The notes: generated from the sequence alone by a model not told the origin. A stretch of 64,000 bases of DNA from Anaerolineae bacterium (GCA_034433995.1 DAOTZU010000169.1:2109-66108); one strand, 5' to 3'. Positions 8,409-42,274 are shown, numbered from the stretch's first letter. Made by a program: numbers and translations.

Positions 8409-8417
8409 GGCACGTCC

Positions 8418-15957: not shown

Positions 15958-16968
15958 ATGCGGGTTCTTTTCATCGGCGGGACGGGCAACATCAGCTCGG
16001 CCTGCGTGGAGTTGGCCCTGGCGCGGGGCTATCAGGTGACGTTGCTCAACCGCGGCACCCGGGAGACGCCCTGGGGCGACCGGGTGACCACCATCCTGGG
16101 CGACCGCAACGATGGCCCCTTCCTGGCCCAGGTGGCCGAGGAGGGGCGCTACGATGTGGTGGCCAACTTTGTCGGTTTTACGCCGCAACAGATTGAGCTG
16201 GATATCGCCGCCTTTGCCGGGCGGGTGGGCCAGTACATCTTTATCAGCTCGGCCAGCGTCTATCAAAAGCCACCCAACCATTACCTCATCACCGAGTCCA
16301 CGCCTCTCCATAACCCCTATTGGGAGTATTCCCGGCAAAAGATCGCCTGCGAGGAGCGCCTGCTGCGGGCCTATCGCGAGGAGGGGTTCCCCATCACCAT
16401 CGTGCGCCCCTCGTACACCTTTGGCCCTACCTGGATCCCCAGCGGCGTGGGCGGCCACGGCTATACCATCGTGGGGCGGATGCGCCAAGGCAAGCCCATC
16501 ATCTCCCACGGCGATGGCCAATCGCTCTGGGTGATGACCTTCCACACCGATTTTGCCCTGGGGTTTGTGGGGCTATTCGGCAAAGCCCAGGCCATCGGCG
16601 AGGCGGTGCACATCACCAGCGACGAGGTGCTCACCTGGGACCAGATCTACCACACCATCGCCCGCGCCGCTGGCTGTCGGGCAGAGATCGTGCATATCCC
16701 CTCGGATTTCATCGCCGCCGTCTATCCGGAATGGGGCCCTGGCCTCTTGGGCGATAAGGCCCATAGCGTGGTGTTCGATAACCAAAAGATCAAGCGCTTG
16801 GTGCCCGAGTTTCGCGCCACGGTGAGCTTTGCCGAGGGGATCGCCCGCTCCCTGGCCTGGCATGACGCCGACCCCGCCCGCCAGGTGGTGGATGCCAAAA
16901 CCGACGCCATGATGGACCGCCTCATCGCCCTCTATCGCCGCGCCTGGGAGGGGTTGGGACGCGGATGA
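15958..16968 (+). CDS. NAD-dependent epimerase/dehydratase family protein
   Basis: MRVLFIGGTGNISSACVELALARGY Rossmann N-terminus; start 15958 after GGGGAGGAAAGG. Confidence 0.8.
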   Translation: MRVLFIGGTGNISSACVELALARGYQVTLLNRGTRETPWGDRVTTILGDRNDGPFLAQVAEEGRYDVVANFVGFTPQQIELDIAAFAGRVGQYIFISSASVYQKPPNHYLITESTPLHNPYWEYSRQKIACEERLLRAYREEGFPITIVRPSYTFGPTWIPSGVGGHGYTIVGRMRQGKPIISHGDGQSLWVMTFHTDFALGFVGLFGKAQAIGEAVHITSDEVLTWDQIYHTIARAAGCRAEIVHIPSDFIAAVYPEWGPGLLGDKAHSVVFDNQKIKRLVPEFRATVSFAEGIARSLAWHDADPARQVVDAKTDAMMDRLIALYRRAWEGLGRG

Positions 16969-17077: not shown

Positions 17078-18937
17078 CTATTCCCCAAACGGCCCGTGAT
17101 AGCGCCCGAAACCGGCCCGCCACAGGGTGAGGCGGTCCGGCATCTCCGCCAGGGGCAGCCAGGAGCGGTAGGGTGTGCCGGTGGTGCCGGCGGAGGCAAA
17201 ATCGCAGAGGACCAGCTCACGGCCCGCCGCGGTCTGGAGCTTGAGCAGGAGCCACGGCGCGGGCCAGGCGCCTGTCCAGGGCACGGGGGTGGACTGAAGT
17301 TGGCGCACATCCACCGGCGGCAGGTCGCCCGGATCGACGCTGTTGAAGCGGCGGTCGTAGGCCAAGAGCAGCGGGCCGTAGTAGAGGGATACCTTGCCCT
17401 CAGCCTCTCGCTCGCCGATCCAAGGGCGCAGGGACATATCCAGTTCCAGCGTCACCCGGTCGCCGGCGCGCCACTCCCGCCGTAGCGCCAGATAGCGTCC
17501 GGGCACCACGCCCTCCACCGGCTGGCCGTTCACCGCCACTTGGCTGTGGCGCGACCACGTTGGGATGCGGAGAGAGAGGCTAAAACTCTCCGCCTGAGAC
17601 AGTTCCAGGGCCAGGGTGATCCTGCCGGAGAGAGGATACTCGGTATATTGAGTGAGCCCCAGCCTTTGGCCGGAGGGCAGGTCGAAGGCGATGGCGCAGG
17701 GGCCATAATAGTTGACCACCGGCCCCTCCTCGGCCTGCATCACCGCCCAATCGGCCAAAAGGGCCAAACTGCGCGGACCGTTCACCGAGCAGCAGTTCAG
17801 CTCCGGGCTGCCCTCCCGCGCCTGAAAGACAATGTGGTGGGCCGAAGCTTTGCGCACGCCGTCCATGGGAGTGTCGTAGGTCCACCAGCGGCCGGAGGGA
17901 TGTTGCGCGCCGAGGGTCGCGTTGAGGGTGGAGAGCTCCAGTTCATCGGCCACGCGGGAATCGCCGGTCAGCCGCAACATATCCACGCTGAGCACCATCC
18001 AGGCCACCGTGCAACAGGTCTCGATGGCGCCCCGGTCGTAGGGGTTGCCGGTGGCCCTTTCGCCGGAGGAAAAACCACCGGTGTTGTGGCGGTCGCCCTG
18101 CTGGATGGTGCGCCAGATCTGCTCAAAAGCGCGGCGATAGTCCTCCTGGCCGGTGATCTCGTACAGGCTGAGGATAGCTTGGATATCGTGCAGGCTCTCC
18201 CAGCGCGGCTTGGGCGTCCGGTGGAAGGGGATATCGGCCAGGGCGGCGCGGACATAGTCGCCGGCCGGAGGGTGTTGCCAATCAGCCTCCACCTCTCGCA
18301 ACATCTGCAAGTAGCGCGGCTCGCCCGTCTCCTGGTAGAGCAGGGCCAGGCCGTGGCTGATGGCCATGTTCATCTCCTCGGCGCCCGCCTGCCGGACCCG
18401 CTCCCCCGTGCCCAGAAAGCGGCGGCAGATGTAATCGGCCGCCCGGCAGCAGGCCTCCAGCGCCGGACGATAGCCCGTCTCCCAATACCAGAGGAGCAGC
18501 CCCAAGATGCAATGGTAGTGGCCCCATAGATCCCAGAGGGCGCCATGGCGGCCATCGCTGGCGCGGCCTGTCAACCGCTCCTGGAGGGGATAGGGGCCCA
18601 GGTAGCCGTCGGCATCCTGGCAGGCGATCAGCTCATCCACAAAGCGATCCAGCTGGGCGCGGAGGCGCTCGTCGCGGCTGAGGCGATAGGCCAGCACCGC
18701 CGAGGTGAGGTACTTGCCGGCGAACTCGCCCGCCCAGGGGACGAGGTCCCGGCGGGGCAGGCGGTCGCGGTCGCGAAAAATCTCCAACATGGCCGGGTTG
18801 GCCTGGGGGGCAATGAGCAGCCATTGCTCCAGGTTGGCCTGCAGGCGCTGCTCGATGAATCCATGGAAGGTGAAGCGCGCCCCCGCGACGGGGGCAAGGG
18901 CGAGGCGAGATGATCTCTTGCAGGGCTCGTGGTTCAT
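17078..18937 (-). CDS. glycoside hydrolase family 127 (beta-L-arabinofuranosidase-like, DUF1680)
   Basis: ORF 17078..19141 (-); start MNHEPCKRSS at 18937 with GGAGGAG RBS; GH127 motifs and Cys residues. Confidence 0.8.
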   Translation of the reverse strand: MNHEPCKRSSRLALAPVAGARFTFHGFIEQRLQANLEQWLLIAPQANPAMLEIFRDRDRLPRRDLVPWAGEFAGKYLTSAVLAYRLSRDERLRAQLDRFVDELIACQDADGYLGPYPLQERLTGRASDGRHGALWDLWGHYHCILGLLLWYWETGYRPALEACCRAADYICRRFLGTGERVRQAGAEEMNMAISHGLALLYQETGEPRYLQMLREVEADWQHPPAGDYVRAALADIPFHRTPKPRWESLHDIQAILSLYEITGQEDYRRAFEQIWRTIQQGDRHNTGGFSSGERATGNPYDRGAIETCCTVAWMVLSVDMLRLTGDSRVADELELSTLNATLGAQHPSGRWWTYDTPMDGVRKASAHHIVFQAREGSPELNCCSVNGPRSLALLADWAVMQAEEGPVVNYYGPCAIAFDLPSGQRLGLTQYTEYPLSGRITLALELSQAESFSLSLRIPTWSRHSQVAVNGQPVEGVVPGRYLALRREWRAGDRVTLELDMSLRPWIGEREAEGKVSLYYGPLLLAYDRRFNSVDPGDLPPVDVRQLQSTPVPWTGAWPAPWLLLKLQTAAGRELVLCDFASAGTTGTPYRSWLPLAEMPDRLTLWRAGFGRYHGPFGE

Positions 18938-19158
18938 ACTGCTCCTCCGAAAATGCTCATCCGTCATTATCACCCTGGCGGTGAACCCAGGGATCGTGAG
19001 TGACTCACAGGCAGGCCAGCAAGCGCCACTCTCCATCTCCCCAGGAGGATAGCTCAAAACCCCATCCAGCTCAAATCCCCCCTTCTTTATCCATTCTTTA
19101 CGTTGGCGCGCCGAAATTCGATTAAAGTAAGTTGAGTCCATATGTTCCAGGAGTGTTT

Positions 19159-21696
19159 ATGGCTACTGAGAGCTATTCTGCAAACTCTACAGAGCGCTCA
19201 GCCCTTTCTGCCCCTTCCTTTTGGGGTTTTTGGATTCAAAACGCCGCTTTGCCCATCCTGGTCCTCGCCCTGTTGGTGGTGAGCTGGCAGTTGCCCTTTT
19301 CTCAAAACCGCATGTTGACCGAGGCGGCCACCCGGACCTATCAGCTTACCCAGCTAGAGATCGTGCGCGCTGTGGCCCGCAGCGTGGAGCAATATCTCCA
19401 AGAGGCGGTGGAGCGACACGCGGTAACGGATCTCTCGGCCTTGGAGCCGGAGGTCCTGGAGCGGTTTATCGCGCCGGTGCAGGTGTTGCCGGGCGCCAAG
19501 CTCTGGCTCGCTGCCCCGGACCGCGTTGTGTTCGAGCGTGGCGGCGATTTCCCCGCAGAGTATCGCGAGCTCAGCTTGGCCAAAATCTTTGAGCGCCAGT
19601 CGGCCCTTGGGGCGCGCGGTTATGAGGAGCTGCTGCGCGCCATCAGCTACGGCCGTGAAGGGGTGGGTTCGTACGTTTGGCTTCCCCAAAAGGGTACCGA
19701 GATCGCCGCTTGGGCGCCGGTGCGGGTGGGCGAGCGTGTTTGGGTCATTGTGCTTTCCACGCCTTTGCGCGAGGTGCTGCGCTCCATCGGAGTGGGCCGG
19801 GAGATCAATACCTCCATCGTCTCCATGAGCCTGGTGACGGTGCTGAGCCTGATCCTGCTTACCGCCTATGCGCGCAACGCCGTCTTGCGCCGCCGGGCGG
19901 AGGAGGATCTTTGGCGCGTGCGCAACGAGCTGGAATGGCGCGTGCAAGAGCGCACTGCCGAGCTGGACCGGCTGAACGAGGCCCTGCGCCAGGATATCGT
20001 CCGTCGGGAACAGGCCGAGCGCAGCTTGCGCCAACGCGAGCAATATCTGCTCACCCTGGTGGAGCTGCAAAAATATCTCCTCCATCTCGGCCGCGAGGAT
20101 GATCTTTATGCGCCGGCGCTGGCCCTCCTGGGCCAGGTCTCTGGCGCCAGCCGAGTGTATATCTTTGAAAATCACCGGAACGGGGCAGGACGCTTGCTCA
20201 TGAACCAGCGCGCCGAATGGTGCGCGCCGGGGATTCATCCAGAGCTGGATAATCCCCGTTTGCAGCATCTCCCCTACGATCAAGGTTACTCCCGTTGGGA
20301 GGCGACCCTCTCCCAGGGCGAGGTCATCGCCGGCCCCGTGGCCGAGTTCCCTGCCGAGGAACGCCCCCTCTTGGAGGAGCAAGGGATCCTGTCGTTGATG
20401 GTGATCCCACTCCTGGTGCAGGGCGAGTTCTTTGGGTTCATCGGCTTTGACCATTGCCAAGAGGCCAAGGCCTGGAATCCCTCCGAGGTAGCCCTCTTGC
20501 GCAGCGCGGCGGTTTCCATCTCTTTGGCTTTGGAACGGCGCCGCCTGGAGGAGCAGTTGCTCCAGGCGCAAAAGATGGAGGCCATCGGCCGCCTGGCCGG
20601 CGGCGTGGCCCATGATTTCAACAATCTGCTCACCATCATCAACGGCTTTAGCCAGCTCCTGTTGCAGACGGCCAAGCCGGAAGATCCCTGGCGCGAGGGA
20701 TTGGAGCAGATCCGCCAGGCCGGCGAGCGCGGCGCCCATCTGACGCGCCAGCTCCTGACCTTCAGCCGGCGCCAGGTGTTGCGGCCCCAGGTGCTCAATC
20801 TCAACGAGGTGCTGGAGGGCCTGCAAAAAATGTTGCCCCGCCTGTTGGGCGAGGATATCATCATCCAGTATGATCTGGCGCAGGATCTGGGCTGGATCAA
20901 GGCCGATCCGGGACAGATGGAGCAAGTGGTGCTCAATTTGGCCGTCAATGCCCGCGATGCCATGCCCCATGGCGGCACCTTGACGGTGCGCACGGCCAAC
21001 GCCACTTTGGATGGCACCCAGGCGCCGAAAAGGACAGGGCGCTACGTGCGGCTCACCTTCCAGGATACCGGCGTGGGGATGTCGGCCCAGGTGCGGGAAC
21101 ACCTGTTTGAGCCTTTCTTCACCACCAAAGAGGTGGGCAAGGGCACGGGGCTGGGGCTTTCGGTGGTCTATGGCATTGTGCAGCAGAGCGGCGGCTGGAT
21201 CGAGGTGGAAAGCGAGCCGGGGCGCGGTTCCACGTTTATCCTCATGTTGCCCCAGGTGGAGGCGCATCCCGTCGCCACCGAGGCGGAATCCCCTGCGGCG
21301 CCGCGGGGTAGCGGCACGGTCTTGGTGGTGGAGGATAACGAAAACGTGCGCCGCCTGACGGTGCGCCTGGTGCGCGAGCTGGGCTATTCCGCCTTGGAGG
21401 CCTCCAACGGGCCGGAGGCGCTGGAGCTCTTGCGCCGCCGGGATGTGCCGGTGGATGTGGTCTTGAGCGATGTGGTCATGCCCCAGATGAATGGCCGAGA
21501 GCTGGCAGAACGAGCCCGCGAGCTCCGGCCGGAGGTGCGCGTGCTCTTGATGTCCGGCTATCCCCAAAGAGCGGGCCGGCCCGAGGCCGAGGCCGCGTTC
21601 CCCATCCTCGATAAACCCCTCACCTTGGAGAGCCTGGCCCGGGCGTTGCGCCAGGTGCTGGGCAATCACCCCCCGCCCGATGCTTCTCTTCCCTAA
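19159..21696 (+). CDS. hybrid sensor histidine kinase (periplasmic sensor, TM, GAF, HisKA, HATPase, C-terminal receiver)
   Basis: H-box GGVAHDFNNLLTII; N/G boxes; C-terminal REC (VLVVEDNENVRRL...LSDVVMP). Confidence 0.8.
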   Translation: MATESYSANSTERSALSAPSFWGFWIQNAALPILVLALLVVSWQLPFSQNRMLTEAATRTYQLTQLEIVRAVARSVEQYLQEAVERHAVTDLSALEPEVLERFIAPVQVLPGAKLWLAAPDRVVFERGGDFPAEYRELSLAKIFERQSALGARGYEELLRAISYGREGVGSYVWLPQKGTEIAAWAPVRVGERVWVIVLSTPLREVLRSIGVGREINTSIVSMSLVTVLSLILLTAYARNAVLRRRAEEDLWRVRNELEWRVQERTAELDRLNEALRQDIVRREQAERSLRQREQYLLTLVELQKYLLHLGREDDLYAPALALLGQVSGASRVYIFENHRNGAGRLLMNQRAEWCAPGIHPELDNPRLQHLPYDQGYSRWEATLSQGEVIAGPVAEFPAEERPLLEEQGILSLMVIPLLVQGEFFGFIGFDHCQEAKAWNPSEVALLRSAAVSISLALERRRLEEQLLQAQKMEAIGRLAGGVAHDFNNLLTIINGFSQLLLQTAKPEDPWREGLEQIRQAGERGAHLTRQLLTFSRRQVLRPQVLNLNEVLEGLQKMLPRLLGEDIIIQYDLAQDLGWIKADPGQMEQVVLNLAVNARDAMPHGGTLTVRTANATLDGTQAPKRTGRYVRLTFQDTGVGMSAQVREHLFEPFFTTKEVGKGTGLGLSVVYGIVQQSGGWIEVESEPGRGSTFILMLPQVEAHPVATEAESPAAPRGSGTVLVVEDNENVRRLTVRLVRELGYSALEASNGPEALELLRRRDVPVDVVLSDVVMPQMNGRELAERARELRPEVRVLLMSGYPQRAGRPEAEAAFPILDKPLTLESLARALRQVLGNHPPPDASLP

Positions 21697-21768
21697 ATCT
21701 GATGCGCACATCTTGAAATCCCTCACGGTGTTGCATATGATAGGGGCAACACTTGTGGGGGGAGCGCC

Positions 21769-22899
21769 ATGATGAACCAAAATCTGGTGGTGGAGCCGGT
21801 CCGCTCGCGCCGCGACTTGAGGCGTTTCGTCCTGCTGCCGTGGCGCATCTATCGCCACGACCCGAACTGGGTGCCTCCCTTGATCGGTGAACGGATGGCC
21901 TATCTCACGCCATCCCGCAACCCCTTCCTGCACGATGCCGAGATGGACCTTTTCCTGGCCCGCCGCGCAGGGCGGGTGGTGGGCAGCATCGGCGTCATCC
22001 TGGATGCCCAGGGGCGATCGGAGGGGGTGGCCCGCTTCGGCTTCTTTGAGGTGGAGGAGGATTACGCCGCGGCGGCGGCGCTGTTGGATCGGGCCCGCCG
22101 CTGGGCCAAGGAGCATGGCGCAAGCTGGCTGCGCGGCCCGGCCAATTTCAGCGAATGGGAATGCCCCGGCGTCTTGGTGGAGGGCACCGATTGCCCCCCG
22201 GTGATGTTGGCCGCCCACACCCCCCTCTACTACCGCGAGTTCCTGGAGCGCTACGGCATGGCAAGTTACCAGGATATGTTCGCCTGGCGCGCTTTCCGCG
22301 AGCAGATCGGCGAGGGCTTGGAACACGTGCCCGATATCCTGGCCCATGTGGCCCAGGTGGCCGAGCAACACCACGTTGTCGTGCGCAAGCTGCGTTTCGA
22401 CCACTGGACCGAGGATGTGGATACCGCCTGTTATCTCTTTAACGCCACGTTGCAACATCTGCCCAAGTTTGTGCCCATCTCCCAAGAGGATTTTCGCCAT
22501 TTCGCCGAGCAGGTGCGCCCCCTCCTGGATCCCGACCTGGCCCTCTTTGCCGAGGTGGATGGCAAGGTGGTGGGTTTTTGCGTCTCCTGGCCCGATTTCA
22601 ACCGCGTCCTGATCCATCTCAACGGCAGGCTGTGGCCTTTGGGCTGGGTGAAGCTGTTTTGGTACATGCGCCGGATAGATGTGCTCACCTTCAAGCTCAT
22701 GGGCCTCTTGCCCGAATATCGCCTGCGCGGGATCGATGCGTTGCTCTTTCTCTCCTCCCTGCGGGCGATGATGGCCAAGGGCTATCGCTGGTTGGATGGT
22801 TCCCTCACTTCGGAGTATAATGCGGCTGTCAATCAATTAGCGGCGCGGTTTGGCGCGGAGCGTTACAAACACTATCGTTTGTACCAGATGGCGGTATAG
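21769..22899 (+). CDS. FemAB-like / GNAT-fold acyltransferase (Acetyltransf_6-like), putative
   Basis: 376-aa two-lobed GNAT-like protein; translationally coupled (4-nt gap) to downstream AMP-ligase gene. Confidence 0.55.
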   Translation: MMNQNLVVEPVRSRRDLRRFVLLPWRIYRHDPNWVPPLIGERMAYLTPSRNPFLHDAEMDLFLARRAGRVVGSIGVILDAQGRSEGVARFGFFEVEEDYAAAAALLDRARRWAKEHGASWLRGPANFSEWECPGVLVEGTDCPPVMLAAHTPLYYREFLERYGMASYQDMFAWRAFREQIGEGLEHVPDILAHVAQVAEQHHVVVRKLRFDHWTEDVDTACYLFNATLQHLPKFVPISQEDFRHFAEQVRPLLDPDLALFAEVDGKVVGFCVSWPDFNRVLIHLNGRLWPLGWVKLFWYMRRIDVLTFKLMGLLPEYRLRGIDALLFLSSLRAMMAKGYRWLDGSLTSEYNAAVNQLAARFGAERYKHYRLYQMAV

Positions 22900-22903
22900 C
22901 GTC

Positions 22904-24598
22904 ATGATCACCGCGAACATGACCCTTTACCAGGCCTTGCTCCAGGAGGCCCGCCAGCATCCGGAGCGCGAGGCCCTCATTGTCGAGGATGTGCGCCTGA
23001 CCTATGGCCAATTGCTGGCCCGCTGTGAGGCGCTGGCTTGGGGGCTGCACCGGGCAGGGCTGCAACCGGGAGAGCGGGTGGCCAGCCTCCTGCCGCCGGG
23101 GTGGCCCGCGGTGGTGTTGCTCTTTGCCCTGGCGAGGCTGGGGGCGGTTGCCGTGCCCCTGAACCCCCAATTCCGCCGTCGCCAGTTGGAGCAGATCCTG
23201 GCCGAGGTGGAGCCGGTCTTTTTGTTCACGGCGGCGCCTCCCCATACCGCCGAGGATCCGGCCACCATCCGAGAGGTCGCGGCGGCCGTGCCCTCCCTGC
23301 GGCAGGTGGTGCTGGTGGAGGATGGGGAGGGGACGCCTTGGAGCGAGCTCCTCCGGCACGCGCCGCCGGTGGAGTGGCCCGAGGGCCCGGCTTCGCCGGA
23401 CGATCTGGCGGTGATCCTTTACACCTCCGGCACCACAGGCCAACCCAAAGGGGTGATGCACAGCCACCGGGGCTTGATCACGCCGGTCTTGGCCAGCCTC
23501 ACCTTGCGACGCATGTGGCTCCATGCCCCCTCGCCGGCCCGGCTCTTGCAGATGGCCGGCTTGGTGGCCCGCTACGGTACGCGGCTGCTCCAGGCCGCCG
23601 GCAAGCCACAGACCTTTCTCACCGCCCTGGGCACCTCCGCCATCGCCGGCGTGGAGGTGGTGTTGCAGGCCCTCTTGATGGGCGATCGCCTCATCCTCAT
23701 GCCCCATTTTCACCCGGTGGAGACCCTGCGCTGGATCCAGCGCGAACGGGTGACGGTGTTGATCGCCGTGCCCTTTGCCTTGGGTGTGTTGGTCAAGATG
23801 CGCGATCTGGAGCGTTACGACCTTTCCTCCCTTTTGATTTGTGGCACCGGCTCGGCCCCCTGCCCGCCGGAGCTGGCCCGCCAGGTGCAGGAGCGTTTCG
23901 GCTGTGCCGTGCACATCGGTTTTGGCACCACCGAGATCGGCGGCGGCATCTCGGCCACCAGCATCGAAGATTCCTCTGAGCGCCAGGCCGAGACGGTGGG
24001 CCGGCCCATGCCGGGCATGGAGGTGCGGGTGGTGGATGAGCAGGGGCGGCCCTTGCCCCCCGGCGCGGTGGGCGAATTGGTCTGCCGCAGCCCCAGCCGC
24101 ATGTTGGGCTACTATCGGGCGCCAGAGTTGACCCGCGAGGTGTTGGACCCCGAGGGCTGGTACCACACCGGCGACCTGGCCACCATGGATGAGCAAGGGT
24201 TCATCCGCATCGTGGGGCGCAAAAAGGACGTCATCATCCGCGGCGGGCAAAATATCTACCCCGCCGAGATCGAGCACTTTTTAATGTCCTTGCCCGGCAT
24301 CCGCGAGGCGGCGGTGGTGGGCGTGCCGGCCCCGGCCGGCGGCGAGCAGGTGTGGGCGTTCATCATCCCGGAAGAAGGGGCCACGGTGGATGCCCAAGAG
24401 GTGTTGGCCCGCTGCCGAGGGGCGTTGGCGCGCTACCAGGTGCCCGAGCAGGTGCGTTTTGTCTCTACTTTGCCCCGTTCCGCGCTGGGCAAGGTGAACA
24501 AGGTGGCCCTGCGCGCCGAGGCGTTGCAGGAGTTCAGCGCCAAGCCGGCTCAAGAGGTAACCCTTGGCACCGATGGGAGCGCTCCCGCGAACGCCTGA
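22904..24598 (+). CDS. AMP-dependent synthetase/ligase (acyl-CoA or acyl-ACP ligase)
   Basis: YTSGTTGQPKGV, GTTE, and ...KVNK motifs of adenylate-forming enzymes. Confidence 0.85.
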   Translation: MITANMTLYQALLQEARQHPEREALIVEDVRLTYGQLLARCEALAWGLHRAGLQPGERVASLLPPGWPAVVLLFALARLGAVAVPLNPQFRRRQLEQILAEVEPVFLFTAAPPHTAEDPATIREVAAAVPSLRQVVLVEDGEGTPWSELLRHAPPVEWPEGPASPDDLAVILYTSGTTGQPKGVMHSHRGLITPVLASLTLRRMWLHAPSPARLLQMAGLVARYGTRLLQAAGKPQTFLTALGTSAIAGVEVVLQALLMGDRLILMPHFHPVETLRWIQRERVTVLIAVPFALGVLVKMRDLERYDLSSLLICGTGSAPCPPELARQVQERFGCAVHIGFGTTEIGGGISATSIEDSSERQAETVGRPMPGMEVRVVDEQGRPLPPGAVGELVCRSPSRMLGYYRAPELTREVLDPEGWYHTGDLATMDEQGFIRIVGRKKDVIIRGGQNIYPAEIEHFLMSLPGIREAAVVGVPAPAGGEQVWAFIIPEEGATVDAQEVLARCRGALARYQVPEQVRFVSTLPRSALGKVNKVALRAEALQEFSAKPAQEVTLGTDGSAPANA

Positions 24599-24665
24599 CC
24601 ATGATGCTGGGCGGGCCGGCTGAGCCCTGAGGGCTGAGAGCTGACCGCTATCGTTGAGGAGGATA

Positions 24666-24974
24666 ATGATGACCTCGTCTCTAACGCATCCGTTGGGCTT
24701 GGAAGAGTTCCGCCAGTTGGTCGCCAAAGAATTGCAAATAGACCTTGCCCAGGTGACGCCCCAATCCTCCTTCATTGAGGATCTGCAGGTGGATTCCATC
24801 CACATGGTGGAGCTCATGCTGCGGCTGGAGGAGTTGGGCATCACCATCCCCCTGGAGCAGGCCTGGGAGATCCACACGGTGGAGGATGCCTATCGTTGCT
24901 ACCGTGCCGGGGTCGAAGCCTCCGCTGCTCCCCAGACCGGTGACCAGCATGCCCCGGCCACCTCGGGCGGCTGA
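24666..24974 (+). CDS. acyl carrier protein (phosphopantetheine-binding)
   Basis: DLQVDSIHMVEL phosphopantetheine attachment-site context; GAGGAGG RBS. Confidence 0.75.
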   Translation: MMTSSLTHPLGLEEFRQLVAKELQIDLAQVTPQSSFIEDLQVDSIHMVELMLRLEELGITIPLEQAWEIHTVEDAYRCYRAGVEASAAPQTGDQHAPATSGG

Positions 24975-24987
24975 GACCGACGGACTC

Positions 24988-25023
24988 CTTGGCAGGGCGC
25001 GAGGCTCCTCGTGCCCTGCCAAG
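24988..25023. terminator. strong hairpin (about 16-bp stem) after ACP gene
   Basis: CTTGGCAGGGCGCGAGG-ctc-CTCGTGCCCTGCCAAG. Confidence 0.5.
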
Positions 25024-25244
25024 ATGCGTTGGCGATGTGCGTCGGAGAGTATCGCTCCGGCCTAAAGGTCGGGCGTGGTCTTGTTTTCCCTCTTTTCAAC
25101 CCCCCGGTTTGCTGGCTTGGCTGCGTTGGGTCGTAAAATCTCTGTGAATTAACGTTGCCTTCACGTTCCCCCTGGCGCTTCTTGGGTACAATAAGGGCGC
25201 TTCTGAAGGATTCTTTCGATTTCAGTGCCTTTGAGGAGCGAGCT

Positions 25245-25460
25245 ATGGCATCCGACGAGCGCATGACCCTGTTGACGGCCAAAGAGGCGGCCAAGTACCT
25301 GCGGGTGAGTCTCTTTACCCTGAGCCGGATCGAGAAGGAGGGACACCTTTTGCCCTTCCGGACGCCAGGGGGGCATCGCCGCTATAGCATCCACATGTTG
25401 AACGAATATTTGGAGCGCAGCCGCCAGGCCGACCGGACCACATCCCCCGCCAAGGCCTAG
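25245..25460 (+). CDS. small helix-turn-helix DNA-binding protein (excisionase/MerR-type HTH_17-like)
   Basis: LLTAKEAAKYLRVSLFTLSRIEKEG; start 25245 after GAGGAG. Confidence 0.6.
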   Translation: MASDERMTLLTAKEAAKYLRVSLFTLSRIEKEGHLLPFRTPGGHRRYSIHMLNEYLERSRQADRTTSPAKA

Positions 25461-25492
25461 AAGGGCCCTGGGGCGGGCGCGAGAGGTGCACC

Positions 25493-27007
25493 GTGGCTGA
25501 TCCATGCAAGCCGGACAAGATCCTCGTGGTGGACGACGAGGCGAACATCCGCCAGATCATCATCCGTGTCCTTGAGCAACGGGGCTACCGGGTGAAGGAG
25601 GCGGCCAACGGCGCGCAGGCCCTGGACTTCCTGCGCGAGGAGCCCTTTGACCTCGTCATCACCGATCTGCGCATGCCCCAGATGGAGGGTTTGGAGCTCT
25701 TGGAGCGGGCGCGGGAGCTTTATCCGGAGACGGATTTCATCATCCTCACCGCCCATGGCACCATCGAAAGCGCCGTCTGGGCCATGCAGCGCGGCGCCGA
25801 TGATTACCTCACCAAGCCCTTTGATGTGCGCGATCTGGAGCTCAAGGTCTCCCAATGCTTTGAGCGGCGCCGCCGGCGCTACGAGGCCCGGCGGCGTTCT
25901 CCCCTGGAACCCCTGGTGGAGCTGGGGCGCATCCTCTCCAGCCAGACGGGCCTGCCCACCAAGCTGGAGCAGATGTTGGAGCAGATTCTGGACCTTATGC
26001 GGCGCACCTTTGCCCCCAACGGCATCGTCATGACCCTGTTCGATCCCCAGAGCCAGCAAGAGGTCACCGTCATCCAGAGCGGCCTGGTGCCCGAGGCTTT
26101 GGGGTATCCCCGGCTCTCTTATGAGGCCATGCGCCAGCTCGCCCAGCGGCCACGGGGATGGTGCCTGCGGGAGGCCGGCGATGCGGCGCCCCTGGAGCGA
26201 GAGGCCCAGAGCGGCGGCGGCATCACCGTCCCCTTGTTTGTGGGCGAGGAGATGGCCGGCGAGCTGACCCTGGTCCGCCAGCCCGGCGCGCCGCGTTACA
26301 CTCCGGAGGATGCCCAGCTCCTGCAGATCTTTGGCTTTCAGGTGGGCATCGCCGTGTTGCAAACCAGGACCCGCCAACGCTTGCTGGAGGCCTTCCAGAA
26401 CCTCCGCCAGGTTACCGTGGAGGCGGTGCAGACCCTTTTTGCGGCGGTGGGCACGTATGACCAATACACCCACGACCATTCCCAGCGGGTGGCCCAGTAT
26501 GCTTATTGGTTGGGGCAACGTGTGGGGCTGGTGGGACGGGAGCTGGAGGCGGTGCGGATTGCCGGTTTGCTCCATGATATCGGCAAGCTGGGCGTGGCCG
26601 ATGAAACGTTGCACAAGAACGGCCGCCTCACCTCCGACGAGTTCGATCGTGTCAAGCTCCACCCGGTGATGGGCGCCCGCATCCTCATGGGCATGGAGGC
26701 CTTTGCCGAGGCGGTGCCCTTGGTGCTCCATCACCATGAACATTATGACGGCAAGGGCTATCCTGACGGCCTGGCCGGCGAGGCGATCCCCCTGGGGGCG
26801 CGCATCATCGCCGTGGTGGATGCTTTCGATTCCATGACCTCCGATCGCCCCTACCGCCCCGCGCTCTCTGTGGCCGAGGCCTTTGGCCTGCTCCGCGGCG
26901 CGGCGGGGACCCAGTTGGATGGTCATTTGGTGGAGGAATGGATCGCGCTGGTGCAGCAAGAGCCCGAAAAAGTAAGCGGTGCTCGCCTGGGGCTAGAAAG
27001 CAGGTGA
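25493..27007 (+). CDS. response regulator with REC, GAF and HD-GYP domains (putative c-di-GMP phosphodiesterase)
   Basis: N-terminal REC (ILVVDDEANIRQ...DLVITDLRMP); HD motif LLHDIGK; HHHEHYDGKGYP (GYP motif). Confidence 0.8.
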   Translation: MADPCKPDKILVVDDEANIRQIIIRVLEQRGYRVKEAANGAQALDFLREEPFDLVITDLRMPQMEGLELLERARELYPETDFIILTAHGTIESAVWAMQRGADDYLTKPFDVRDLELKVSQCFERRRRRYEARRRSPLEPLVELGRILSSQTGLPTKLEQMLEQILDLMRRTFAPNGIVMTLFDPQSQQEVTVIQSGLVPEALGYPRLSYEAMRQLAQRPRGWCLREAGDAAPLEREAQSGGGITVPLFVGEEMAGELTLVRQPGAPRYTPEDAQLLQIFGFQVGIAVLQTRTRQRLLEAFQNLRQVTVEAVQTLFAAVGTYDQYTHDHSQRVAQYAYWLGQRVGLVGRELEAVRIAGLLHDIGKLGVADETLHKNGRLTSDEFDRVKLHPVMGARILMGMEAFAEAVPLVLHHHEHYDGKGYPDGLAGEAIPLGARIIAVVDAFDSMTSDRPYRPALSVAEAFGLLRGAAGTQLDGHLVEEWIALVQQEPEKVSGARLGLESR

Positions 27008-27013
27008 GGTTGG

Positions 27014-28636
27014 ATGCCTGAGCGGATTTTACTTGTGGATGATGAACAAGAGATCGTCGAGTTTGCCGGCCGGGTGCTCCAGCGGCTGGGGTACGAGACC
27101 GTCACGGCCACCTCCGGCGAGGCGGCTTTGGCGCTCCTCTCCCAGGAGCATTTTGACCTGTTGGTCACAGATCTCATGATGCCGGGGATGACGGGGCTGG
27201 AGCTTTTGGCGGCGGCGCGCCAGGCGAACCCTCACCTGGCGACGGTGGTCATCACCGGGTTCGGCAGCGTGGAGATGGCCATCAAGGCCCTGCGGGCCGG
27301 CGCGGGAGATTTTGTCACCAAGCCCTTTGGCATGGCCGATCTCCGCGCCGCCGTGGAGCACGCCCTGGAGCAGGGGCGGCTGTTGCGCGAGAACGCCCGC
27401 CTGCGCGCCCTCTTGCCCCTTTTGGAGCTGAACAAGCAGAGCTTGCGCCAGGATTTGCCGTCGCTCCTGCAGCACCTTGTGGAGATCGCCCAGGAGGAGA
27501 CGGGCGCCGATGGGGCGGCCCTGTTGCTCCTCGGTGAAGACGGCCATACGTACATCGAGGGAAGACTTGGGCTCATCCCCGCAAGTTGCACCGAATGCGA
27601 GAACATTACCCGCAATATGAGTGCCTCCGAAGAGGCGCGTATCTTGAGCCCGCAGGACGCGCCCTCGCCCACGCTGTGCGAGGCGATGCAAGAGCACGGC
27701 ATTGCCTCGCTCATGTGCGTGCCTTTGCGCACCCCCAACCGCTATCTGGGCGTCATGGCGTTGACCAAGGCCGCCGGCCACGAGCTCTTCCGCGAGGCGG
27801 ACCGGGAGTTGGCCTCCATCTTGGGAAGCCAGGCGGCGGCGCTTTTGGAGAACGCCAACCTGGTACAAAAGTTGGGGGCCTGGAACAAGGAGCTGGAGGC
27901 GCGGGTGGAGGAGCGCACCCGCGAGCTTCGCGCCGCCCAGGAGCAGCTCTTGCGCGCCGAACGCCTGGCCACCATCGGCAAGTTCGGCGCCAGCATCGCC
28001 CATGAGTTGCGCAACCCGCTGGGTGTGATCAACAACTCGGTCTATTACCTCAAAACGCGCCTGGGCGAGGCTGATCCCAAGGTTGCCAAGCATCTCCAGA
28101 TCATCGAGCGCGAGGTGGAGGCCGCAAACCGCATCATCACCGATATCATGAACTTTGTGCGTGTCACCGAGGTGCGGATGGAGCCGGTAGATCCGAACGC
28201 GTTGGTGCGCCAAACCCTGGAACGGGCTTTGTTGCCCGATACGGTGCAAGTGCAGTTGGCTCTCACCCCTGATCTGCCTCCTGTACAGGCGGATGCCGAT
28301 AAGATGCACCAGGTCTTTATCAATCTGATCAACAACGCCGTCCAAGCCATGCCCGAGGGCGGAAAGCTCACCATTGCCACGGATCAGCAGAACGGTTGCG
28401 TCCGTTTTAGTTTTAGCGATACCGGCTGCGGCATCCCCGAGGAGAACATGGAGCGCATCTTTGAGCCCTTGTTCACCACCAAGGCCAAAGGGATCGGCCT
28501 GGGGTTGCCGCTGGTGCGGATGTTGGTGGAGGCGCACCGTGGCCAGGTTCAGGTCGCCAGCCGCGTGGGCGAAGGAACCCGCTTCACCGTGTGCTTGCCC
28601 TATCAAGAGCATCATAAGGAGCACCTGACCACATGA
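27014..28636 (+). CDS. hybrid REC-GAF-histidine kinase
   Basis: N-terminal REC; H-box ASIAHELRNPL; HATPase G-boxes. Confidence 0.8.
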   Translation: MPERILLVDDEQEIVEFAGRVLQRLGYETVTATSGEAALALLSQEHFDLLVTDLMMPGMTGLELLAAARQANPHLATVVITGFGSVEMAIKALRAGAGDFVTKPFGMADLRAAVEHALEQGRLLRENARLRALLPLLELNKQSLRQDLPSLLQHLVEIAQEETGADGAALLLLGEDGHTYIEGRLGLIPASCTECENITRNMSASEEARILSPQDAPSPTLCEAMQEHGIASLMCVPLRTPNRYLGVMALTKAAGHELFREADRELASILGSQAAALLENANLVQKLGAWNKELEARVEERTRELRAAQEQLLRAERLATIGKFGASIAHELRNPLGVINNSVYYLKTRLGEADPKVAKHLQIIEREVEAANRIITDIMNFVRVTEVRMEPVDPNALVRQTLERALLPDTVQVQLALTPDLPPVQADADKMHQVFINLINNAVQAMPEGGKLTIATDQQNGCVRFSFSDTGCGIPEENMERIFEPLFTTKAKGIGLGLPLVRMLVEAHRGQVQVASRVGEGTRFTVCLPYQEHHKEHLTT

Positions 28637-29031
28637 CCGACGAACCTGCACGTCCTGCGTTGCTGTTGGTGGTGGATGACGAAGAGGGCATGCGCGATAC
28701 CCTGCTGGACATCTTGGAGGCGTATGACTTTGACGTCGACCAGGCCTGTAACGGCCAAGAGGCGGTGGACAAGGTGAAGCGGCGGCCCTATAACCTGGTG
28801 TTGATGGATGTCAAGATGCCGGTGATGGATGGCCTGATGGCGCTCCATCTCATCAGGACGATCCGCCCCAAGCTGCCGGTGATCCTGATGACCGCCTATG
28901 CCGACACCTTCTCGCTGGATCGGGCCAAGGTGGATGGAGCGACGGCGATCTTTGCCAAGCCCCTCAAGCTGGACGATCTGCTGCGCTTGATCCAAAGCCT
29001 TTTGCCCGTGCAGGGCAGGGGAGGCTGCTGA
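28633..29031 (+). CDS. single-domain response regulator (REC)
   Basis: LLVVDDEEGMRD...VLMDVKMP...ILMTAY; 4-nt overlap with upstream kinase. Confidence 0.8.
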   Translation: MTDEPARPALLLVVDDEEGMRDTLLDILEAYDFDVDQACNGQEAVDKVKRRPYNLVLMDVKMPVMDGLMALHLIRTIRPKLPVILMTAYADTFSLDRAKVDGATAIFAKPLKLDDLLRLIQSLLPVQGRGGC

Positions 29032-29717
29032 TGGCCGCCATCCGCGAGCGCCCATTTTTGGTGGATGAGGCTTTCGGGCAGATCATCCGCCTGGTGGGCC
29101 ACGATTTGCGCAACAAGCTCAGCGTGATGCAGAACTCGACGTACTTTTTGAATATGAAGGTGGGCGGCCAGAATGAGAAACTGGCCAAACACCTGGGCAT
29201 TCTGCTGCGCGAGATCAACCAAAGCAACCGCATCGTGCTCAACTTGATGGACCTGGCCGCGCCCAAGACGCCCAAGCCGGCGCTGGTGGAGCTCAACCCG
29301 CTGATCCAGCAGACCCTGGAACAAGTGCCGCCGCCCGAGGGCGCCATCCTCAAGACCATGCTGGCGGCAGAACTGCCTCCCGTGCAGGCTGATGGGGAAC
29401 AGCTGGGCCGGGCGTTGGAGAACATCCTCCTCTTCCAATATGCCGCCCTCAGGCCGGGCGATACCTTGCGGGTGATCTCGCGCGCCGCCGGCGCCAAGGT
29501 TTATGTGGAGCTGGTGGATAGCGGCCCCGGCCTGGCCAAGGAGCAGGTGGCGCGCCTGTTCGAGCTACAGCCGGGGGAGGGGCCTATCGCGTTGCAGATG
29601 GGCCTGGTGGTGGCCCGTCAATTGATCGCCTTGAACAAGGGCCAGCTTGAGGTGGAGAGCCGCCTGGGCCTGGGCACCCGGTTCAGCATCATTTTGCCCC
29701 TCTCCCCTGCGGGATGA
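29031..29717 (+). CDS. cytoplasmic histidine kinase core (HisKA-like + HATPase)
   Basis: LVGHDLRNKLSVM H-box; C-terminal ATPase GxGLG motifs; start overlaps stop of REC gene. Confidence 0.7.
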   Translation: MAAIRERPFLVDEAFGQIIRLVGHDLRNKLSVMQNSTYFLNMKVGGQNEKLAKHLGILLREINQSNRIVLNLMDLAAPKTPKPALVELNPLIQQTLEQVPPPEGAILKTMLAAELPPVQADGEQLGRALENILLFQYAALRPGDTLRVISRAAGAKVYVELVDSGPGLAKEQVARLFELQPGEGPIALQMGLVVARQLIALNKGQLEVESRLGLGTRFSIILPLSPAG

Positions 29718-29858: not shown

Positions 29859-30989
29859 TCAGGCGGAGCGCAGGAGCTGGCGCACGTGTTCCGGATTATT
29901 GGCCTTGGCCAAGATGTCTTCCAGGGTGACCATGCCGCGACGGTAAAGCTCGATCAGCGCCTGATCTAGGGTCCTCATCCCCAGCCGCTGGCTGGTCTCG
30001 ATGACGCCGGGGAGTTGATGGGTCTTGGCCTCGCGGATGAGATTGCGCACCGCCGGCGAGGCGACCATCACCTCCACCGCTACCACGCGGCCCTTCCCAT
30101 CGGCGGTGGGCAGCAGCGTCTGAGAGAGCACTCCCTCCAGGATCATGGAGAGTTGGATGCGCACCTGTTGTTGCTGGTGCGGCGGAAAGACGTCGATGAT
30201 GCGGTCCACCGTGTTGGCGGCGCCGGCGGTGTGCAGGGTGGAGAGCACCAGGTGGCCCGTCTCGGCGGCGGTGATGGCCGCGGCGATGGTCTCCAGGTCC
30301 CGCATCTCGCCCACCAGGATCACGTCGGGGTCCTGGCGCAAGGCGTGTTTGAGGGCGGAGGCGAAGCTGGGCGTGTCCTCGCCCAGCTCCCGCTGGGTGA
30401 TCATGCTCTGCTTGTCGGTAAAGACGTACTCGATGGGATCTTCGCAGGTGACGATGCGGCAGCGTTGTCGCTCGTTAAGATAGTCAATCATCGCCGCCAG
30501 GGTGGTGGATTTGCCGCTGCCGGTGGGCCCGGTGACGAGGATCAAGCCACGGGGCCGCATGATCAATTCTTTGCACACCGGGGGCAGCAACAAGTCGTCC
30601 AACGTGGGGATGATCATGCTCAGGCGGCGCATGACCATGGTGATGGTGCCCCGTTGTTTGGCCACATTGATGCGAAAGCGGGCCACCCCTTCCAGCTCAT
30701 AGGAGAGATCCAGCTCCAATTCCTGCTCAAAGCGCCGGCGCTGCTCCGGATTGGTCACCTGCTCGTAGAGGCGGGCCAGGTCGGCGGCGCTCAGGGGCTC
30801 GTACTGCGCCTGCACCTGCAGGTCGCCCCGGATGCGCAACACCGGCGGGCTCCCGGCCTTCAGGTGCAGATCTGAGGCGCCCAGGCGCGTCGTCAAGTGC
30901 AAAAGCTCGTCAATGTACACCTCCGCGCTGGGCGTGGGCCGGGCGAAGGTTGTGCGCTGCGTAGGTTGGCGCATGATGGGATCGGACAT
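29859..30989 (-). CDS. pilT: type IV pilus retraction ATPase PilT
   Basis: Walker A GPTGSGKST, PilT-family motifs; start 30989 with GGGGAA upstream. Confidence 0.85.
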   Translation of the reverse strand: MSDPIMRQPTQRTTFARPTPSAEVYIDELLHLTTRLGASDLHLKAGSPPVLRIRGDLQVQAQYEPLSAADLARLYEQVTNPEQRRRFEQELELDLSYELEGVARFRINVAKQRGTITMVMRRLSMIIPTLDDLLLPPVCKELIMRPRGLILVTGPTGSGKSTTLAAMIDYLNERQRCRIVTCEDPIEYVFTDKQSMITQRELGEDTPSFASALKHALRQDPDVILVGEMRDLETIAAAITAAETGHLVLSTLHTAGAANTVDRIIDVFPPHQQQQVRIQLSMILEGVLSQTLLPTADGKGRVVAVEVMVASPAVRNLIREAKTHQLPGVIETSQRLGMRTLDQALIELYRRGMVTLEDILAKANNPEHVRQLLRSA

Positions 30990-31145
30990 GTCCAAATTCC
31001 CCAGATCAGGATGTTGTGCTATCCCCTCGCCTGTAATGGGCCCTGAGGCCAAACAGTCGTTCTCCCCCGCGGTGCGACCAAATCCATGGGCGCGGGACCC
31101 TGCCCGATATATTTGCTCTAGTGAGCCCCTTGTGGGCCGTGGCCT

Positions 31146-31976
31146 CTAACCGGCGAAATACCAGAGCAACAGCCGGCTGCCGTAGAGCATGTACAGGAAG
31201 GTGGTGAGCACCAAAAAGGGCGCAAAAGGGATGGCCGTTTTGCGCCCGGCCAGCCGGGTGATGAGCAGCACGACCCCCACAACCCCTCCCAAAATGAAGG
31301 AGCTGAACACCGCCACCAGCGCCCCCGGAAAGGCGGTGATGAGCCCGGCAAAGGCCGCCAGCTTGACATCGCCGGCCCCCATCCCCTGGGGGGCGATGAG
31401 CCAGATCAGCCAAAAGATGAGAAAGGCGGCCAAGCCTCCCAGCAGCTGGCTCAAGGCCGTCCATTGCGCGATGGACAAACTCGCCATGCCACGGTTGCGT
31501 TGGATCAGCCAAAAGAGGCCCAAGTGGGCGAAGGAAGGCTCCGCCACCAGGGCCTGGATGGGGATGGCCAAAAGGGCCAAGACGATGGCCGGCAAGATGA
31601 CCACGTTCAACACCAATTTGTGCTCCAAGTCGATGACCAGGATGACCAGGAGGAAGCAGGTGTACACCGTGCTCAGCGCCAGTTCCACACTGGGGCCGAA
31701 AAACCAGGCCAGGAAGGCGAAAAGGAGGCCGGTAACCAGTTCCACCAGCAGCACGCGCAAGGGAATGCGCGCCCCGCAGGTGCGGCAACGTCCCCGGAGG
31801 ACGAGATAGCTGACCACAGGCACCAGGTCCCCCGCGGTGAGCTGCCGACCGCACTGGGGACAATGGGAGGGCGGGCGCAGCAGCGATTGCTGGGCGGGCA
31901 GCCGATCCATGACGACGTTCAGGAAGCTGCCCACGATGAGCCCCACCAAGCCATAAAGGGCGCTGAACCACACCAT
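31146..31976 (-). CDS. pilD: prepilin peptidase (A24 family)
   Basis: N-terminal CPxCG Zn-finger-like (HCPQCGRQL...CRTCG), polytopic membrane domain. Confidence 0.85.
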   Translation of the reverse strand: MVWFSALYGLVGLIVGSFLNVVMDRLPAQQSLLRPPSHCPQCGRQLTAGDLVPVVSYLVLRGRCRTCGARIPLRVLLVELVTGLLFAFLAWFFGPSVELALSTVYTCFLLVILVIDLEHKLVLNVVILPAIVLALLAIPIQALVAEPSFAHLGLFWLIQRNRGMASLSIAQWTALSQLLGGLAAFLIFWLIWLIAPQGMGAGDVKLAAFAGLITAFPGALVAVFSSFILGGVVGVVLLITRLAGRKTAIPFAPFLVLTTFLYMLYGSRLLLWYFAG

Positions 31977-31977
31977 G

Positions 31978-32871: not shown

Positions 32872-32914
32872 GTGCGTTTCCTTCCCCAGGGCTAGGGGCA
32901 TCCCTGCGCCGATT

Positions 32915-34162: not shown

Positions 34163-34174
34163 CTTTTCGCCCTC

Positions 34175-39294: not shown

Positions 39295-39385
39295 AGGTTC
39301 CTTTGCGCAGCAAGGGCCAGAGCCGAGACTCTGGCCCCATTGTAACATATCTTGCTGTAGCTGTCATCCGTGGCAATGGGGGCGT

Positions 39386-41742: not shown

Positions 41743-41755
41743 GGGAAGATCTCCC

Positions 41756-42274
41756 TCACTGGGAAAGGCGCCGGGTGATGGTCAGCGTCATGCTGCGGCT
41801 GCCCCGGCGGGCCAGGGCGCTGGTCAAGGTGATGCGCACGGTGGTGCTGATCTGGGTCCCTTGCAGCGGCTCGATCTGCCAGGAGCTGATGTGCCGGGCC
41901 ACGGTGACCGAGCTGCTCCCGCCCGCGCCCGAGGTGGTGCGCACCAAATTGCCCCCCACCAGGCTGTAGGTGACGGTGGTGACCTGCGCCGATCCCGTTT
42001 GTCCAAAGGGGTAGGAGGGGATGTTCAGAGTCAATGTGGTGCCGTCAAAAGTGCCCTCCGAGGCGCCCACCACATCCCGGTTGAGGAGCACGCCGGCGGT
42101 CTGGAGCTGTTGGCTCAGCGTCAGCGAGTCCTGCTGCAGGCGGGTGAGGTTGTTAAATTGATACAGCATCACCACCAACGCCCCCAGGAGCAGCGCCGTG
42201 ATGGCGGTGGAGATCATGGTCTCCACCAGGGTGAATCCGTTTTGGCCCGTGCCGAGGAGCAAGCGCTTTTTCAT
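41756..42274 (-). CDS. prepilin-type N-terminal cleavage/methylation domain protein (minor pilin-like)
   Basis: GFTLVETMISTAITALLLGALVVML class-III signal peptide. Confidence 0.7.
   Translation of the reverse strand: MKKRLLLGTGQNGFTLVETMISTAITALLLGALVVMLYQFNNLTRLQQDSLTLSQQLQTAGVLLNRDVVGASEGTFDGTTLTLNIPSYPFGQTGSAQVTTVTYSLVGGNLVRTTSGAGGSSSVTVARHISSWQIEPLQGTQISTTVRITLTSALARRGSRSMTLTITRRLSQ

Follow-up and report, generated by a model that had tools for sequence, protein, structure and literature searches.

We analysed a 64,000-nt window of DNA from an Anaerolineae bacterium (GCA_034433995.1, DAOTZU010000169.1:2109-66108), in which three adjacent genes encode a tandem GNAT (G1), an ANL adenylate-forming ligase (G2) and an acyl carrier protein, or ACP (G3). 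We propose that the trio forms a self-contained module for N-acylation, dependent on a carrier protein and with a diverged tandem GNAT of the bCerS family at its centre, a reading to which we give a probability of about 55%. It draws on the end-to-end homology of G1 to the YghO/bCerS family, and on the recurrence of the same gene arrangement in Chloroflexota and Spirochaetota.

Gene structure of the cassette

An open reading frame (ORF) check and independent gene calls, which return the same three genes on identical metagenome contigs, agree on three plus-strand genes where the initial annotation had placed them. The reported 4-nt gap between the first two is also there (the G1 stop TAG is at 22897-22899 and the G2 ATG at 22904), and the protein types are borne out: G1 is a two-lobed GNAT, G2 an adenylate-forming ligase and G3 an ACP. 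The features of the cassette are as follows, in window coordinates.

21713..21741, plus strand: sigma-70-like promoter candidate, TTGAAA-17-TATGAT, 10/12 consensus matches
21760-21764: G1 ribosome-binding site GGGAG, read from the sequence
21769..22899, plus strand: G1, putative tandem-GNAT N-acyltransferase of the YghO/bCerS superfamily, cassette-linked clade; 376/375 aa, gene callers start at 21772
22904..24598, plus strand: G2, ANL adenylate-forming acyl ligase of fatty-acyl-CoA-synthetase type; 564 aa, PF00501 and PF13193
24656..24662, plus strand: G3 Shine-Dalgarno sequence GAGGAGG, read from the sequence
24669..24974, plus strand: G3, stand-alone ACP; 101 aa (102 aa from the alternative ATG at 24666), PF00550
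24988..25023, plus strand: GC-rich hairpin with a perfect 16-bp stem right after the G3 stop, found by folding against shuffles

The spacer between G2 and G3 is 67-70 nt. The promoter candidate lies in the 72-nt gap downstream of a histidine kinase gene; the scan returns one site in the region against 0.8 expected by chance, which on its own is weak evidence. At the other end, the region 24972-25045 that includes the hairpin folds with a free energy of -47.9 kcal/mol (z -7.05), and 0/200 shuffles fold as well. The hairpin has no T-run, which is why a terminator scan missed it, and it is likely to be a transcript end or a stabiliser. Because a promoter-like site stands 5' and a strong hairpin 3' of the three genes, the trio looks like its own transcription unit. 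An antisense ORF that overlaps G1 (19354-22836, minus strand, 1160 aa) was rejected as a gene; it is one of the shadow ORFs that are typical at a GC content of about 64%.

Homology of G1 to the YghO/bCerS family

G1 aligns end to end with YghO of E. coli BL21 (376/380 aa, 32% identity, BLASTP E 3e-61), and it has the architecture of that family, a soluble protein of about 375-380 aa with two GNAT lobes. We take CC_1154 of Caulobacter strain CB15 and CCNA_01212 of strain NA1000 to be the same gene. E. coli BL21 yghO (ECD_02850) is listed as the homologue of CC_1154, an N-acyltransferase needed for dihydroceramide (PMC9386255), and the Caulobacter ceramide synthase gene bcerS is CCNA_01212 (PMC9393093). 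In an E. coli lysine-acetyltransferase screen, yghO appears merely in the strain list. The E. coli BL21 locus has yghO (380 aa) and then, divergently, genes for a fatty acyl-AMP ligase (FAAL), an epimerase, an ACP and a serine palmitoyltransferase (Spt).

The homology extends to individual residues. Forty-six positions are conserved in at least 90% of the cassette clade and in at least 80% of the other 142 family sequences, with E94, R206, N278, E349, N351 and R370 of G1 as examples; clade-specific positions, such as K309, W213 and G344, are few. Because these 46 positions are shared, G1 is expected to catalyse the same amide-forming chemistry as the bCerS-type enzymes. The family is large. 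Close homologues of G1, about 378 aa long, number more than 1100, and the named ones are Anaerolineae or Chloroflexota; an exhaustive search of representative sequences, with proteins of about 375 aa, collects 820 clusters at an E-value limit of 1e-30 and 3365 when the limit is 1e-10.

Profile libraries say little about G1. In Pfam it matches PF00583 only, a weak generic GNAT assignment of 31.7 bits, and an NCBIfam scan returns 0 families at E <= 0.01. YghO itself has 0 matches in Pfam and in NCBIfam, and the generic result for G1 is explained by the lack of a YghO/bCerS model in both libraries. The initial annotation had held that a generic acetyltransferase match alone would count against an acyl-ACP-dependent enzyme. 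A generic match is indeed all that G1 gives, yet this is misleading since YghO matches no model either. PDB sequence searches with G1, as a single sequence and as a profile, did not find solved relatives, and a literature search for a bCerS structure returned none. The two-lobed GNAT fold of G1 is common to FemX/FemA, and the closest solved folds are glucosamine N-acetyltransferases.

In a rough neighbour-joining distance tree, all cassette-linked GNATs, including those of loci without a ligase, form one clade, and YghO, the Spt fusions and the PilZ fusions described below fall outside it. G1 is not simply a ceramide synthase, but a member of a separate clade of the bCerS family.

The ligase and the carrier protein

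G2 matches PF00501 with 300.7 bits, together with PF13193. Its best NCBIfam match is NF004837, a long-chain-fatty-acid--CoA ligase (414 bits against a cutoff of 476), with many acyl-, aryl- and malonyl-CoA ligase models scoring close behind. In both the NCBIfam and the PDB comparison, the closest resemblance of G2 appears to be to the fatty-acyl-CoA synthetases, and FAAL models are absent from its top 25 NCBIfam matches. The alignment of G2 with the solved ANL enzymes in the PDB falls into two blocks, and G2 has an insertion of about 26 residues, within residues 193-247, between the P-loop and the next core motif. Part of it (R-Y-G..L-L-Q..G-x-P) is conserved in 50 cassette ligases. Its position presumably differs from that of the FAAL-specific insertion.

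G3 matches PF00550 with 43.5 bits and has an isoelectric point of about 4.4. Its NCBIfam matches are generic ACP models, every one under its cutoff. The phosphopantetheine serine is in a DSI motif that is conserved in the first 12 of 54 aligned orthologues, those that were inspected.

Conservation of the cassette across genomes

Scanning one genome per GTDB species, we collected 80 loci from Chloroflexota (Anaerolineae, Thermoflexales and 'Chloroflexia' metagenome-assembled genomes, or MAGs) and from Spirochaetota. The three window proteins served as tblastn queries for partner genes, and in 65 subfamily loci the downstream DNA reaches far enough for the arrangement to be judged. The arrangements are the following.

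GNAT-ligase-ACP, in this order: 51/65 loci
GNAT-ACP without ligase, in a Thermoflexales-like lineage: 12/65 loci
GNAT-ligase, ACP not detected: 2 loci (L046, L073)
neither partner: 1 locus (L003)

The GNAT-ligase-ACP arrangement is far beyond chance. In the three-gene loci, the median intergenic gaps are about 30 nt. Since 12 loci keep GNAT and ACP together without the ligase, GNAT-ACP is the core pair. Three distant Chloroflexota paralogues (36-38% identity) are found without ligase or ACP, and the neighbours of the non-cassette Chloroflexota paralogues L074, L075 and L079 are uninformative.

All-against-all clustering of the ORFs in the 80 loci finds no further conserved neighbour, only antisense shadow ORFs and lineage-specific synteny. 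Among the latter, an Sfp-type phosphopantetheinyl transferase gene adjoins the ACP gene in 5 Spirochaetia loci, and APC permease-Usp genes stand directly upstream in 4 loci. In one Anaerolineae lineage, genes for an M20 peptidase and an MR_MLE protein (enolase superfamily, N-acyl-amino-acid-racemase type) adjoin the cassette in L088 (7368-9942), L076 and L009, a faint hint at N-acyl amino acid metabolism. A GPH/MFS_2 symporter gene (TIGR00792, 282 bits against a cutoff of 231) separates ligase from ACP in L086 and L002 and directly precedes the GNAT in L067 and L070; P0125, a GNAT of an outgroup, shows translational coupling with an MFS_2 transporter. The pairing of a GNAT with a GPH/MFS_2 transporter thus recurs, and the symporter genes are at these coordinates.

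L086, 12787-14196
L002, 5411-6814
L067, 1912-3255
L070, 4538-5902
L096, 6888-8273

One Spirochaetia MAG, JBEKQU01, holds two full GNAT-ligase-ACP cassettes, L047 and L064, on contigs 114 and 115 (51% and 46% identity to G1). This suggests a duplication with diverged specificity.

Proposed function and alternative explanations

In the module that we propose, the substrate of G2 would be a free carboxylic acid, most likely a fatty acid of medium or long chain length, which the enzyme would adenylate and whose acyl group it would thioesterify onto the phosphopantetheine arm of G3, a step suggested by the domain families and the gene linkage. With acyl-G3 as donor, G1 would then acylate an acceptor at its amino group to give an amide; the thioester would be bound by the C-terminal GNAT lobe of G1, which carries a Y-R-x-R-G-I motif-A-like loop. 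We infer the amide chemistry from the bCerS homology and the retention of the 46 family-wide positions, and the ACP as donor from a GNAT-ACP adjacency that persists even without the ligase. For the acceptor, one candidate is a long-chain base of sphingoid type, supplied by an Spt without linkage to the cassette; others are a lyso-aminolipid, an amino sugar or glycoside, an amino acid and a polyamine. The non-sphingoid amines are equally plausible, because there is no Spt linkage, transporters are associated with some cassettes and the structural neighbours of G1 act on amino sugars. The product would probably be an N-acyl lipid located in the membrane or at the surface. Such a module would resemble AasR/AcpR in channelling a free fatty acid to one product, with the ACP wired to an N-acyltransferase and not to Spt. 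Precedents exist for its two halves: the GNAT SbzI has a carrier protein as its acyl donor (PMC11685415), and AasR acylates only its cognate ACP (PMC9386255). The mechanism given in the initial annotation, a ligase that loads a private ACP and an acyl group that moves to an amine, thus survives as a proposal; its family anchor does not, and is now bCerS and AasR/AcpR in place of FemAB.

Several observations weigh against this N-acylation module. Spt, or alpha-oxoamine synthase (AOS) more generally, was not found in the 64-kb window or in the cassette flanks L001-L083 by tblastn with two Spt-like domains. The nearest outgroups are not beside Spt either (P0123 follows tRNA-related genes and P0125 adjoins the MFS_2 transporter), and quite possibly the acceptor is not a sphingoid base. 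Within the clade, L003 lacks both partners, and L046 and L073 lack a detectable ACP. bCerS is described as an acyl-CoA N-acyltransferase (PMC9386255), so the proposed ACP dependence of G1 draws on gene linkage only. As G2 is not of FAAL type, it could make acyl-CoA instead. Malonyl-CoA synthetase and aryl-AMP ligases are nearly as similar to G2 as the fatty-acyl enzymes are, and the substrate of G2 is not readable from its sequence.

Four other explanations have to be weighed. The cassette could be three-fifths of a Caulobacter-type ceramide pathway, in which G1 is an ordinary ceramide synthase using acyl-CoA or any thioester, G2 and G3 feed an unlinked Spt, and CerR is unlinked too. The full-length homology of G1 to YghO/bCerS agrees with this, and so do the position of yghO beside a ligase-epimerase-ACP-spt operon in E. 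coli BL21, the supply of Spt by AasR/AcpR (PMC9386255), and the 218 Black Sea Chloroflexota MAGs that encode Spt-like proteins, with Anaerolineae abundance correlating with ceramides (PMC11334938). Spt linkage is not obligatory in every phylum; the sphingolipid genes of Bacteroidota are unlinked (PMC11334938). We nevertheless consider this explanation unlikely. The genes in close association in Rhodobacteria are acpR and spt, and aasR can lie far away (PMC9386255), whereas here they are those of the GNAT and the ACP, which stay together in the 12 loci without ligase. More than 80 loci have no AOS/Spt in the 6-10 kb around the cassette, G2 shares only 27% identity with AasR over partial coverage (E 1e-27) and is not of FAAL type, and the cassette clade stands apart from YghO and the Spt fusions in the tree. 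Somewhat less probable still is a re-acylation or scavenging unit in the manner of LplT/Aas of E. coli, where a transporter moves an amine-bearing lyso-lipid or glycoside through the membrane, to be N-acylated with exogenous fatty acid activated on the private ACP. We regard it as a special case of the N-acylation module with a specific physiological role. The LplT/Aas parts are an MFS transporter, an ANL ligase, an ACP and an acyltransferase. In favour of such a unit are the GPH/MFS_2 symporters inside or beside the cassette in L086, L002, L067 and L070, the coupling of P0125 to MFS_2, the APC permease-Usp genes directly upstream in 4 loci, and the closest solved folds to G1, which are glucosamine N-acetyltransferases. 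Most loci, however, have no transporter, and neither does the window. The usual cargo of GPH transporters is sugar, and the association may be lineage-specific synteny.

For a reading along the lines of the initial annotation we find little probability left; in it the triad would be related to FemAB, associated with exosortase or similar to OlsB, and its target for acylation a peptide, a cell-wall precursor or an amino acid (lipoamino acid synthesis). FemABX and the PEP-CTERM-associated FemAB-like protein have a two-lobed GNAT fold too, the latter makes up a similar trio on paper with its ligase and ACP (TIGR03019/TIGR03098), there are weak matches to PF13480 (FemAB-like GNAT) in 22/99 family members and to PF04339 in 3/99, and M20 peptidase and MR_MLE genes adjoin the cassette in L088, L076 and L009. 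But membership of G1 in the FemAB, exosortase or OlsB families is largely refuted. With PF00583 as its one Pfam match, G1 has none of PF02388, PF13480 and PF04339, and Fem proteins are not its closest structural neighbours. TIGR03019 is unmatched in NCBIfam at E <= 0.01, G2 scores 234.6 bits against the 592.35 cutoff of TIGR03098 (rank 25 of its matches), and PF13444, expected of OlsB or an N-acyl amino acid synthase, is absent from G1 and from all 99 family members scanned. No exosortase or PEP-CTERM gene is found among the 28 window ORFs scanned with Pfam or among the recurrent neighbours in the 80 loci. The least probable of the four, to our mind, is that G1 makes no amide but works on the carrier, either as an acyl-CoA:ACP S-acyltransferase or as an acyl/malonyl-ACP decarboxylase (like GNAT loading domains or MadA), and so primes the ACP for a pathway encoded elsewhere. 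Some GNATs do work on substrates bound to an ACP, for example MadA/YiiD (PMC8666670), and malonyl-CoA synthetase is among the better matches of G2. G1, however, keeps the 46 family-wide positions common to bCerS-type N-acyltransferases, as a 376-aa tandem GNAT it is unlike the GNL/MadA domains, and no genes of a downstream pathway are conserved near the cassette.

Going one step beyond the N-acylation module, the cassette clade would be the first bCerS-family enzyme hard-wired to acyl-ACP and, in the absence of Spt, would make an unrecognised class of N-acyl amine lipid (for example from an amino-glycoside, polyamine or lyso-aminolipid) in Chloroflexota and Spirochaetota. We put this forward tentatively, at well below even odds.

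Comparison with known systems

G1 is like bCerS (CCNA_01212; YghO) in its family, in being a soluble tandem GNAT of about 375-380 aa and in the 46 shared positions, and the E. coli BL21 neighbourhood of YghO, like the cassette, has an ANL ligase and a small ACP. Unlike bCerS, the G1 clade is separate, never beside Spt or CerR, and almost always directly before its own ligase and/or ACP. bCerS is described as acyl-CoA dependent and takes a sphingoid base as acceptor; G1 may differ on both points.

AasR and AcpR, of rhodobacterial sphingolipid synthesis, are like G2 and G3 a dedicated ANL ligase and a small acidic ACP, and are thought to channel a fatty acid to one lipid pathway (PMC9386255). 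In E. coli BL21 they adjoin a bCerS-family gene. AasR is a FAAL (NF006624/PRK09192, 870 bits for E. coli AasR), whereas G2 resembles the fatty-acyl-CoA synthetases and has a different insertion, and G2 and G3 are related to AasR and AcpR only generically. AcpR pairs with spt and serves a C-C condensation; G3 pairs with the GNAT, which would imply N-acylation.

Mycobactin lipidation follows the same three-part logic as the cassette: MbtM (FadD33), the ligase, loads a fatty acid on the stand-alone ACP MbtL, and the GNAT MbtK transfers it to the N6 of lysine. MbtK, however, belongs to another family and has a single GNAT domain in about 210 aa, and the Mbt genes lie in a siderophore cluster. MbtM is a FAAL; NF004510 is among the AasR matches and not in the top 25 of G2. 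SbzI/SbzG are like the proposed G1 in that a GNAT has a carrier-protein acyl donor instead of CoA, but SbzI is unrelated in sequence, transfers 2-sulfamoylacetyl and belongs to a secondary-metabolite cluster (PMC11685415). The MshD-like tandem GNATs (mycothiol synthase; glucosamine N-acetyltransferase 5kf1; MAB_4324; clavulanate ORF14 2wpw) have 14-18% identity to G1; they are 60-80 residues shorter, use acetyl-CoA and are without ACP or ligase partners.

The family outside the cassette clade

Our survey confirms that genomic context supports a sphingolipid role for the bCerS family in other phyla. On Rubrobacter and Streptomyces plasmids, the genes of an Spt-like protein, of a G1-homologous GNAT and of an epimerase overlap. 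Three Spt-like fusions of about 780 aa (P0151, P0209 and P0212) join an N-terminal alpha-oxoamine synthase to a bCerS-type tandem GNAT, and the fused synthase comes closest in NCBIfam to serine palmitoyltransferase, with 539 bits where the cutoff is 640. P0209 (L092, 8001-10343) is flanked by an overlapping CerR-like epimerase gene and a PAP2 phosphatase gene; this locus looks like a compact sphingolipid operon with its first two enzymes fused. It was the Spt fusions that pointed to sphingolipid synthesis.

In P0191 (L098, 7001-8512) and P0246, a cyclic di-GMP-binding PilZ domain is fused N-terminally to the family tandem GNAT, which suggests control of the N-acyltransferase by cyclic di-GMP. 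The P0191 gene comes after genes for a class-III aminotransferase, an SRPBCC protein and a Shikimate_DH-like protein, and before a 7TM-GAF kinase gene.

Roseomonas plasmids carry bCerS-family homologues annotated as 'dATP pyrophosphohydrolase' (L091, Roseomonas gilardii pRo-1, 7956-9113). Their neighbours are genes for a sterol-desaturase family protein, an LptF/G-like protein, a CDP-alcohol phosphatidyltransferase and an acylglycerol kinase family protein. Because these homologues sit among lipid genes, the label looks like a propagated mis-annotation, and the cluster appears to be of sphingolipid type.

Significance

A literature search did not find a description of this GNAT-ligase-ACP cassette. 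We regard it as a variant on the known bCerS-family N-acyltransferase and on the module of ligase, ACP and GNAT, with conventional parts and chemistry. What it bears on is how sphingolipid producers are recognised, since homologues of Spt, bCerS and CerR are now used to predict them in metagenomes. A Black Sea survey accepted bCerS homologues at E <= 1e-30 (PMC11334938). G1 would pass that filter, though the context of its clade is its own ligase and ACP with no Spt or CerR. If the clade makes ceramide, there would be an ACP-dependent route to the N-acyl chain in two phyla with poorly known membrane lipids. If it makes no ceramide, it would represent a new amide-lipid pathway, and bCerS-like matches would be unreliable as a sphingolipid marker. 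Should the tentative proposal of an acyl-ACP-dependent enzyme without Spt hold, the 'bCerS' family (3365 representative clusters at E <= 1e-10) would mostly not be ceramide synthases, and bCerS homology alone would over-predict sphingolipid producers in metagenomic surveys. The trio is also a compact testable unit, and a natural system in which to study how a GNAT recognises a carrier protein as opposed to CoA.

Other features of the window

The cassette is embedded in a dense signalling block (19132-21696 and 25245-29717), preceded by an epimerase gene and a glycoside hydrolase gene.

15958-16968, plus strand: NAD-dependent epimerase, upstream
17078-19141, minus strand: GH127 beta-L-arabinofuranosidase-like gene, upstream
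19132-21696: hybrid GAF-HisKA-HATPase-receiver kinase, upstream
25245-25460: HTH_17/BldC-like small regulator, downstream
25493-27007: receiver-GAF-HD-GYP protein, likely a cyclic di-GMP phosphodiesterase, downstream
27014-28636: receiver-GAF-histidine kinase, downstream
28633-29031: lone receiver, downstream
29031-29717: short kinase, downstream

We rejected the flanking two-component and HD-GYP genes as regulators of the cassette; sensor or regulator genes are near only about 10/80 loci and the linkage is not conserved. The epimerase was rejected as CerR, its similarity to the E. coli CerR homologue being generic only (24% identity, E 9e-6).

Further downstream, a cluster of the type IV pilus or type II secretion system (T2SS) kind occupies about 29859-45969 on the minus strand.

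29859-31052, minus strand: PilT/PilB-type ATPase
31978-32901, minus strand: PilM-like protein
32915-35494, minus strand: two LysM-repeat proteins
35314-39348, minus strand: 1344-aa protein with PilN and PPC domains
42803-44023, minus strand: T2SSF platform protein
44020-45969, minus strand: receiver-MshEN-T2SSE ATPase fusion

Two more genes have unusual domain combinations.

1779-4301, plus strand: 840-aa ORF with an N-terminal PadR-type HTH, a GH57 branching-enzyme catalytic domain and BE_C
50032-51657, minus strand: N6/N4 DNA methylase fused to an Mrr-type restriction endonuclease domain

The 840-aa ORF may be an unusual fusion of regulator and enzyme, or its listed TTG start may be too far upstream. 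The methylase-Mrr fusion is a possible single-polypeptide restriction-modification or defence gene.

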